DNA of 64,000 bases from Candidatus Nomurabacteria bacterium (GTDB lineage Bacteria > Patescibacteriota > Minisyncoccia > Phycocordibacterales > UBA9973). The first letter of the stretch is position 1. Each line of letters starts with the position of its first letter. Shown here in pieces: positions 16,689 to 17,156 of this stretch. Below the pieces are notes generated by a model that saw only the letters and a program-made list of their open reading frames with translations, did not search any database and was not told the DNA's origin. The translations under genes were made by a program, and so were the position numbers. The DNA is taken from positions 88,706 through 152,705 of the forward strand of contig JAHFNH010000002.1 of the NCBI GenBank assembly GCA_023267435.1. The letters are read 5' to 3'.

Positions 16689-16720
16689 GATTTTTCTTTT
16701 TTGTAAATTAAAAAAATTAA

Positions 16721-16767
16721 GGCGTCGTGGGTCCCCTTTCCTATCTTTTCAGAGGGCGAAGGCGCAG
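16721..16767. repeat. E1 repeat element, intergenic copy between atpF and atpE
   Basis: ggcgtcgtgggtcccctttcctatcttttcagagggcgaaggcgcag; two further copies lie in-frame in the FAD oxidase gene (23470..23514, 23929..23973). Confidence 0.85.
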
Positions 16768-16800
16768 AATTTTTTTAAATTTATAAAAAACTTATAAAAA

Positions 16801-17043
16801 TTATTTAATAGAGAACGCAATAACTAGACCGTAAATAGCCACAGCTTCTGCGAAGGCTGATGCGATCAACATGGGAACAAGGACTTTACCTGTAGCTTCT
16901 GGGTTTCTTCCAATAGCTTCCATAGCTCTTCCTCCGATAAGACCGATACCGATACCTGCACCAACTGCTGATAAACCAATAGCTAAACCTTTACCTACTG
17001 GTGCGAAACTAACTACTGCATCTACTACTTGTTTTGTATCCAT
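16801..17043 (-). CDS. atpE: ATP synthase Fo subunit c
   Basis: Two-helix proteolipid with the conserved carboxylate helix …[15 protein letters not shown]. Confidence 0.92.
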
Positions 17044-17116
17044 AATATTTTTTTGCTTTACTGATATTTCAGTGTAAGCGATAATTAAACTTATAATTTA
17101 TTCGACTAATTTTTAA

Positions 17117-17153
17117 TTTCGCCTCTTCGGCGAATCAGCCGTTGAGGCTGAAA
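17117..17153. repeat. E2 repeat element (double hairpin), intergenic copy between atpE and atpB
   Basis: tttcgccTCTTCggcgaatcagccGTTGAggctgaaa; stems covary with copies at 18951..18986 and 57815..57852. Confidence 0.85.
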
Positions 17154-17156
17154 TTT

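Follow-up and report, generated by a model that had tools for sequence, protein, structure and literature searches.

Palindromic repeats of two families in the spacers on either side of atpE in a Patescibacteria ATP synthase operon: probable passengers

In the ATP synthase operon analysed here, both spacers that adjoin atpE, the gene for subunit c of F0, are occupied by short palindromic repeats, a copy of the family E1 lying between atpE and atpF and a copy of the family E2 between atpB and atpE. We think it probable that these are selfish palindromes of the RPE or REP kind, which lie in the two uncoupled spacers of the operon and are carried there as passengers. By analogy with such repeats, E1 and E2 would each represent a family of small insertion elements, palindromic and with a GC core, of the AT-rich genomes of Patescibacteria. 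Both belong to families with further members elsewhere, copies of both lie in frame within genes, their presence varies among relatives, and the same spacers are recurrently occupied by unrelated elements in other lineages.

The spacers adjoining atpE and the elements within them

The window, by which we mean the whole 64-kb stretch of DNA that was analysed, encodes an ATP synthase on its minus strand in the order small ORF, atpB, atpE, atpF, atpH, atpA, atpG and atpD, as read from its open reading frames, and matches to the Pfam families ATP-synt_A, ATP-synt_C, ATP-synt_B and OSCP were obtained within the operon (Table 1). The segment 16689-17156 consists exactly of the atpE-atpF spacer (112 nt), atpE itself and the atpB-atpE spacer (113 nt). 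To judge by the relatives of its AtpB, the organism is a patescibacterium from the Nomurabacteria/Paceibacterota group. The remaining junctions of the operon measure 0-30 nt, and thus the two spacers adjoining atpE, which alone are longer, are the only landing pads that it offers.

Table 1. Features of the window, with positions counted from its first letter
Feature	Position	Strand	Remarks
atpB (F0 subunit a)	17157..18029	-	290-aa ORF; PF00119 ATP-synt_A
atpE (F0 subunit c)	16801..17043	-	80-aa ORF; PF00137, E = 2.3e-18
atpF (F0 subunit b)	16194..16688	-	164-aa ORF; PF00430
Motif AAATTAGTCGAA in atpB-atpE spacer, upstream of atpE	17101..17112	-	conserved in relatives
Small hairpin ACTGA-TATT-TCAGT, atpB-atpE spacer	17060..17073	-	read from sequence
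E1 copy, atpE-atpF spacer	~16704-16783, core 16724-16763	-	A/T outer stem around core; operon-sense
E1 copy inside FAD-binding oxidoreductase gene (22480..24282, -)	23459..23529	-	in frame; encodes ..AKNLGAFALGDIGQGTHDAKNSLP..
Second E1 copy, same FAD-binding oxidoreductase gene	23918..23988	-	in frame; encodes ..VKDFGAFALGDKGQGTHDSKNPLLE..
E2 copy, atpB-atpE spacer	~17115-17153	+	nhmmer E = 1.2e-9 against E2 profile
E2 copy, intergenic, prfA / RRM-type RNA-binding protein gene	18951..18981	+	
E2 copy in tsaD (57580..58677, +)	57816..57846	+	in frame; clean 10-residue insert IASSAIRRRG
Seven tandem ~93-nt repeats (31 codons)	38170-38875		60-80% identical; inside 517-residue ORF 37563..39113 (-)
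Motif TTGAC(T/A)(C/T)GTCAATAT(T/A)TTTGTGATA, three times	542-602, 56307-56367, 62278-62320		
51-nt sequence TTATATT.CTTA.TATAA.GTTCCAATTCCGTCCCGTTTGG, two copies	34241-34291, 34952-35002		86% identical

A sequence-only reading of this DNA had placed E1 in the atpE-atpF spacer and E2 in the atpB-atpE spacer, and this was confirmed by coordinates, by profile matches and by shuffles, the E1 and E2 patterns finding no match in 100 shuffles of the window. Its description of the two as dispersed, hairpin-forming repeat families was likewise borne out: the window holds three copies of each, two of the three E1 copies and one of the three E2 copies lying inside genes, and a single metagenome scan with the E1 core pattern returned at least 120 stretches. 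The E1 copy beside atpE belongs to the CTGAAAAGATAGGAAAG core subfamily, which is common to the loci L087 and L119, and the ATG of atpF lies 35 nt past its core. The E2 copy begins 4 nt past the stop codon of atpB and forms the interrupted palindrome CGCCTC-tt-CGGCG-aatca-GCCG-tt-GAGGC, for which two folds are possible, either a single long hairpin or two tandem hairpins; it has a 15-mer in common with the E2 copy at 57818. The adjacency of the two elements is weakly non-random, as by our own estimate, which takes account of 75 spacers (38 of at least 40 nt), one intergenic E1 and two intergenic E2 copies in the window, an E2 would be expected beside the spacer that holds E1 in some 5-10% of cases.

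The two elements differ in how they fold. E2 is a 30-nt GC-rich palindrome that forms a stable hairpin whichever strand is folded (-20 to -24 kcal/mol, with z between -3 and -6), and its copy beside atpE reaches -20.3 kcal/mol in the operon sense (z -5.24). The E1 copy in the operon sense reaches -14.2 kcal/mol (z -0.44), which is no better than shuffles, and its complement folds better, at -23.7 kcal/mol (z -2.95). Thus the stable stem-loops that the sequence-only reading had seen on both sides of atpE hold for E2 but, in the operon sense, not for E1. A search of the whole window against Rfam at the gathering score returned tRNAs only, and with an E-value threshold the matches in 16600-17250 were at chance level, the best reaching 19.9 bits where the gathering score is 88.5.

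Several other features of the two spacers were recorded. The motif AAATTAGTCGAA occurs between atpB and atpE in the window and in L002, L003, L005-L008 and L054, is kept with or without E2 and is split by an insertion in L004; it may serve atpE as a signal for translation or processing. The hairpin ACTGA-TATT-TCAGT was met in this genome only among the loci compared, BLAST giving no further match. Pairing between the atpB-atpE and atpE-atpF spacers was predicted at -24.5 kcal/mol, an uncontrolled value for AU-rich partners of 112 nt.

Three further sets of repeats in the window are separate from E1 and E2. The tandem repeats of 31 codons lie within a long minus-strand ORF, which points to a protein with internal repeats. 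The motif beginning TTGAC has the look of a promoter or operator common to its three sites, one in which the -10 region is extended. The two 51-nt copies lie 711 nt apart, adjoin short minus-strand genes, and may represent another repeat or a shared leader.

Structure and placement of the two families

For E1, 124 distinct instances were compared, made up of the scan matches listed together with the window and the locus L007, and drawn from assemblies of groundwater, aquifers and lakes; as the scan accepted exact matches to the core only, the conservation of the core is overstated. The hairpin has a median length of 94 nt among the matches listed and combines a variable, strongly covarying stem of ~26 bp with a conserved 40-nt core. 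Its arms vary by copy and by subfamily yet remain complementary. In the stem alignment, 92.5% of the cells were paired as against 76.5% after shuffling (slid controls gave 40-60%), and 513 cells showed double changes as against 177, with none of 500 shuffles as high. The core, conserved in sequence under the exact-core scan, is without structure whichever strand is folded (z +1.2 and z +1.3). Where columns 6-26 of the alignment pair with columns 78-97, a C is recurrently bulged out of the 5' arm and an A out of the 3' arm, and a 2x2 internal loop adjoins the core.

The strand that pairs better is not the one found in the mRNA. Among the matches listed, the complement outfolded the mRNA-sense strand in 113 of 119 E1 copies, with a mean of -37.6 as against -30.3 kcal/mol, and by our tally of the pair table A.C mismatches on the sense strand (107) outnumber G.U pairs (61), an excess that speaks against a sense RNA helix being under selection. 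The orientation of E1 is nevertheless tied to transcription, as described below, which sits uneasily with this asymmetry of the strands.

Among the matches listed, 30 of the 124 E1 instances lie inside long ORFs, in the sense orientation in every case, and 29 of these 30 share a common reading phase. The in-frame element encodes K-N/D-F/S-GAFALGD-x-GQGTHDAKN, and a variant that is one base longer encodes GAFALGDKRTGNPRRIEF. Stop codons within the core were considered as a cause of the in-gene sense bias and rejected, as by our reading the reverse complement of the core is open in all three frames. With regard to the 91 intergenic copies among the matches listed, the two flanking genes both pointed the same way as E1 in 49 cases, and in 2 they both pointed the other way. 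Intergenic E1 fills the gap from one stop codon to the next start, with a median distance of 30 nt from the stop to the core and of 38 nt from the core to the following start. Co-orientation with genes stands at about 85% within 300 nt and drops to about 70% beyond 2 kb, and the locus L156 holds two E1 copies, 1.3 kb apart, that point in opposite directions, both of them being sense with respect to the gene they adjoin. Thus local transcription matters for the orientation of E1, and not the direction of replication alone. Replication-coupled insertion of the IS200/IS605 type was rejected as the sole cause of orientation on the same grounds, namely the higher co-orientation with adjacent genes and the opposed copies of L156.

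The genes upstream of E1 among the matches listed belong to at least 47 Pfam families; of 62 upstream-gene cases only 2 are ATP-synt_C, those of the window and L007. Readings of E1 as an integron attC site, an intron or a tRNA fragment were also set aside in view of its conserved centre with variable arms, its translation within genes and the lack of a tRNA match.

The in-frame copies of the window lie at sites where related proteins vary in length. Against solved structures of TsaD the E2 insert aligns with a clean gap of 10 residues, and both E1 copies of the FAD-binding oxidoreductase fall on gaps against solved homologs. With 120 close homologs compared for each protein (P0001-P0120 for the FAD oxidase and P0121-P0240 for TsaD), the FAD oxidase was found to have two fixed insertion sites, at residues ~98-123 and 251-276 of the window protein, which are either empty (WNVVQNN followed directly by IFDLNKLL) or filled by E1, by a related GLTLPGVPVGTHTVQN-type (GLTLPGVPVGTH-type) insert or by unrelated short inserts. 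Relative to the syntenic ortholog in L202, in which the sites are empty, each E1 adds exactly 25 codons. The TsaD site, at residues ~80-90, shows likewise varied occupancy and is empty in most homologs. In the TsaD of P0184/L203, a protein of 67% identity, E2 is found at this site too and matches the window copy in 38 of 39 nt, and this near-identity at the nucleotide level suggests either a recent, site-preferring insertion or strong constraint on the nucleotide sequence.

At least four or five types of insert were seen at the loop sites of the two proteins, namely E1, GLTLPGVPVGTHTVQN, PLQGEGRGEV, QGRTLRIQKG and LTNSAIAEN, and these in-frame hot spots lengthen the FAD oxidase and TsaD by ~10-35 residues per site. 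The gene order FAD oxidase, L25, SLT-domain protein, L31, RF1, RRM protein, tRNA-Ile and atpB is kept in L202, as compared with positions 11000-24300 of the window, which eases the comparison of filled with empty orthologs.

E2 was not found in 863 kb of E1-bearing contigs or in 80 atp loci, and outside the window it was met only through the TsaD protein search. Its absence from these contigs and loci indicates that E2 is narrower in distribution than E1.

The view of both elements as mobile, which the sequence-only reading had taken for granted, is consistent with their varying presence and absence among relatives. In the 39 E1 copies that could be evaluated, direct repeats of k = 2-7 in the flanks were no commoner than in shuffles, and no target-site duplication was visible when filled and empty sites were compared. 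Because no target-site duplication was found, and no associated transposase in the sequence compared, the case for mobility is drawn from distribution only. The manner in which E1 and E2 move, like their lack of an adaptive role, is something that we infer.

The atp spacers of relatives and the competing readings

Comparison of atp loci showed that the elements beside atpE are not shared by the nearest relatives of the window. The two closest, L002 and L003, with AtpB identities of 88% and 87%, have neither E1 nor E2; their atpB-atpE spacers are 56 nt long, and their atpE-atpF spacers measure 38 nt with a simple hairpin in L002 and 128 nt with a different inverted-repeat element in L003. In L004 (AtpB identity 76%) an E2-like tandem hairpin lies directly past the atpB stop codon, and the atpE-atpF spacer is 20 nt long and has no hairpin. 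L007 (73%) has another GC hairpin upstream of atpE and carries E1 between atpE and atpF, with spacer and orientation as in the window, and L054 (64%) has an atpB-atpE spacer of 75 nt and a hairpin-free atpE-atpF spacer of 9 nt. Other hairpins were found in both atpE-adjoining spacers of further lineages.

A number of these are themselves repeats. The E2-like element of L004 recurs in L185, L122, L110 and L025, and the atp spacer element of L009 recurs in L096 and L150. The element in the atpE-atpF spacer of L003 (L003:7158-7285) belongs to a third dispersed inverted-repeat family, GAATGAATCCCGTTAGAAGC ... GCTTCTAAACGGG, which recurs as partial copies in L004 (L004:381-505), twice in L086 (L086:2873-2903 and 4057-4095), in L106 (L106:11130-11159), and in L124 and L127. 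The hairpins of L002, L005/6/8, L014 and L015 had no second copy in the sequence compared, and such single-copy hairpins between atpE and atpF may be ordinary functional stem-loops rather than repeats. The atpE-adjoining spacers resemble the protein hot spots, in that both are tolerant sites repeatedly filled by different palindromes.

Length and folding of the spacers were compared across the window and L002-L058, with the other co-directional spacers as reference (median 20.5 nt, fold z -1.59, z below -2 in 43%). The atpB-atpE spacers had a median of 79 nt (p = 4e-8) and a fold z of -3.55 (p = 0.03), with z below -2 in 59%, and the atpE-atpF spacers a median of 71 nt (p = 1.6e-4) and a fold z of -4.05 (p = 5e-5), with z below -2 in 81%. 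The whole atpE-atpF spacer of the window, at z -1.14, is among the weakest of the 27 atpE-atpF spacers. Structured spacers beside atpE, to which the sequence-only reading had drawn attention, are thus a trait of the lineage as a whole; the particular elements it had singled out are not, given their absence from the closest two relatives.

According to the passenger reading, the elements would persist wherever ~30 to 100 extra bases can be tolerated, that is, in spacers whose flanking genes lack translational coupling and in surface loops of proteins, where they would be read through in frame. Different lineages would fill the atpE-adjoining spacers with different palindromic repeats, and it may be colonisation by palindromes that made the spacers long and structured, and not the reverse. 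Once transcribed, the elements would put a stem-loop on either side of atpE and might alter local RNA processing, any such change being a by-product and not a recruited dosage device. Against this reading stand the unusually strong structure of the atpE-atpF spacers and the length of both atpE-adjoining spacers, behind which there could be selection for a hairpin that follows atpE, and so does the single-copy nature of several of the hairpins found between atpE and atpF. Taken together, these two findings mean that a stem-loop after atpE may be selected. In addition, E1 has both an orientation bias and a fixed position, and a purely neutral selfish model predicts neither.

The sequence-only reading had proposed instead that the elements were co-opted to set the dosage of atpE. 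In this scheme, a stem-loop 3' of atpE would be selected as a barrier to 3'-to-5' exonucleases or as a site for RNase III, such that the atpE segment outlives the mRNA from atpF onward, E1 supplying the hairpin and E2 a second one to protect the 5' end left by a cut downstream of atpB. The E1 stem is long enough for a substrate of RNase III, for which ~26 bp suffices, the atpE-atpF spacer is longer and more structured than others across relatives, and L007 has E1 in the same place. Precedents exist elsewhere, as protective 3' mRNA structures are established as helping to set operon stoichiometry, for example at malE-malF, with genome-wide data from E. coli (PMC5927463), and Correia and ERIC repeats are known substrates of RNase III and RNase E that alter mRNA levels (PMC10969869). 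In E. coli the atpE mRNA does exceed that of atpB 2.4-fold, but the excess of atpE is mostly translational, with 4.4-fold arising at that step (PMC4538824).

However, the comparative data do not favour co-option, which they leave less likely than the passenger reading. The closest relatives manage without either element, unrelated repeats take up the same spacers elsewhere, and the short atpE-atpF spacers of L004 and L054 contain no hairpin at all. E1 follows genes of many unrelated families and also sits within coding sequences. In the window itself, the hairpin 3' of atpE folds at the level of shuffles in the mRNA sense, in a position where relatives are generally strongly structured, and neither element is terminator-like in the operon sense. 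Moreover, the long structured spacers that would speak for co-option may simply follow from colonisation by palindromes. We therefore regard the dosage proposal as unlikely, if still worth serious consideration.

A third possibility is that E1 acts throughout Patescibacteria as a strand-specific RNA module between cistrons, or that it spreads by way of host transcripts, with a variable stem that juxtaposes stop and start codons and a conserved 40-nt recognition loop for a putative partner; the hairpins flanking atpE in most relatives would then be a conserved means of uncoupling or tuning the expression of subunit c, and the repeats would fill that role here. This we consider improbable. In a more restricted version, which appears to us decidedly improbable, E1 is a strand-specific intercistronic module used by the host, whose stem joins the stop codon to the downstream ribosome-binding site, or makes a site for processing or protein binding, and presents the 40-nt loop; the atp copy would be an ordinary instance and the in-gene copies a spill-over. 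The prevalence of sense over antisense copies between genes and the fixed placement from stop codon to ribosome-binding site, among the matches listed, agree with this version, as does an orientation that tracks local transcription over that of distant genes, including the opposed pair of L156, but a quarter of the E1 copies are translated inside genes and presence is patchy between close relatives. Similarly, the covariation of the stem would suit a module of this kind, whereas the better folding of the complement and the excess of A.C over G.U are the opposite of what a sense helix predicts. A conserved yet unstructured core is what would be expected of a recognition loop, although that conservation is inflated by the exact-core scan.

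Finally, it is hardly credible that the two structures serve as intrinsic terminators of the ordinary sort or as operon-internal promoters and resemble other loci by coincidence. In favour of such a reading, the second half of E2 is terminator-like, but on the plus strand only, antisense to the operon. Against it, no terminator-like site was found at E1 or E2 in the operon sense, promoter-like matches were at shuffle level (12 found, 10.9 expected), and identity to many distant copies, some of them inside genes, rules out coincidence.

Comparison with known repeat systems

A search of the literature found no description of such palindromic elements in Patescibacteria or the candidate phyla radiation. 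Of the behaviours on record, those of RPEs and of Correia and ERIC elements come nearest (PMC10969869). Hairpin repeats in operon spacers are a familiar sight, and the finding at atpE changes little by itself. The practical bearing lies rather in gene calling and the comparison of protein lengths, in alignment-based phylogenies, and in searches for structured RNAs in spacers.

Mobile GC clusters are a feature of yeast mitochondrial DNA. E1 and E2 are comparable to these, and to the hairpin elements of sponge mitochondria, as GC palindromes of a very AT-rich genome that are found in spacers and occasionally in frame. The likeness is one of analogy only, as those elements belong to organelle genomes and have no sequence relation to E1 or E2.

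Among the MITEs, stems of Correia elements are cleaved by RNase III and ERIC alters access for RNase E, with changes in the levels of neighbouring transcripts (PMC10969869). The ~26-bp stem of E1 would be a comparable putative substrate, by analogy with these elements of Neisseria (Correia) and of Yersinia and enterobacteria (ERIC). Correia and ERIC elements end in well-defined inverted repeats and duplicate their targets, and no such duplication was seen for E1. The arms of E1 are inverted repeats whose sequence varies by subfamily.

The REP sequences and BIMEs of enterobacteria are GC-rich imperfect palindromes of ~30-40 nt, extragenic by definition, with a 5' GTAG and an association with RAYT (Y1 transposase). 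E2 is similar as a GC-rich palindrome of ~30 nt in an operon spacer. Transcribed REP hairpins can shield upstream mRNA from 3' exonucleases, as at malE-malF (PMC5927463), and it was to a mechanism of this kind that the sequence-only reading appealed. Unlike the strictly extragenic REP sequences and BIMEs, both E1 and E2 are also found inside genes.

Rickettsia palindromic elements (RPEs) are ~150 bp long and occur between genes or in frame within unrelated housekeeping genes (PMC10969869). E1 and E2 resemble them as short, palindromic, multi-copy elements of the AT-rich, reduced genome of a host-dependent bacterium, which occur both between genes and in frame within unrelated genes, where they add a conserved peptide at tolerated sites. 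They presumably have no sequence relation to RPEs and come from another phylum, and are thus likened to them by behaviour and not as members. E1 differs further in the covarying stems, specific to each subfamily, that surround a conserved unstructured core, and in the strong sense orientation of its intergenic copies at operon junctions, and E2 in a length of only 30 nt. Patescibacteria, with their very small genomes, carry several families of small palindromic elements, and these are found time after time at the same permissive positions of housekeeping proteins and operon junctions, a behaviour much like that of RPEs in Rickettsia.
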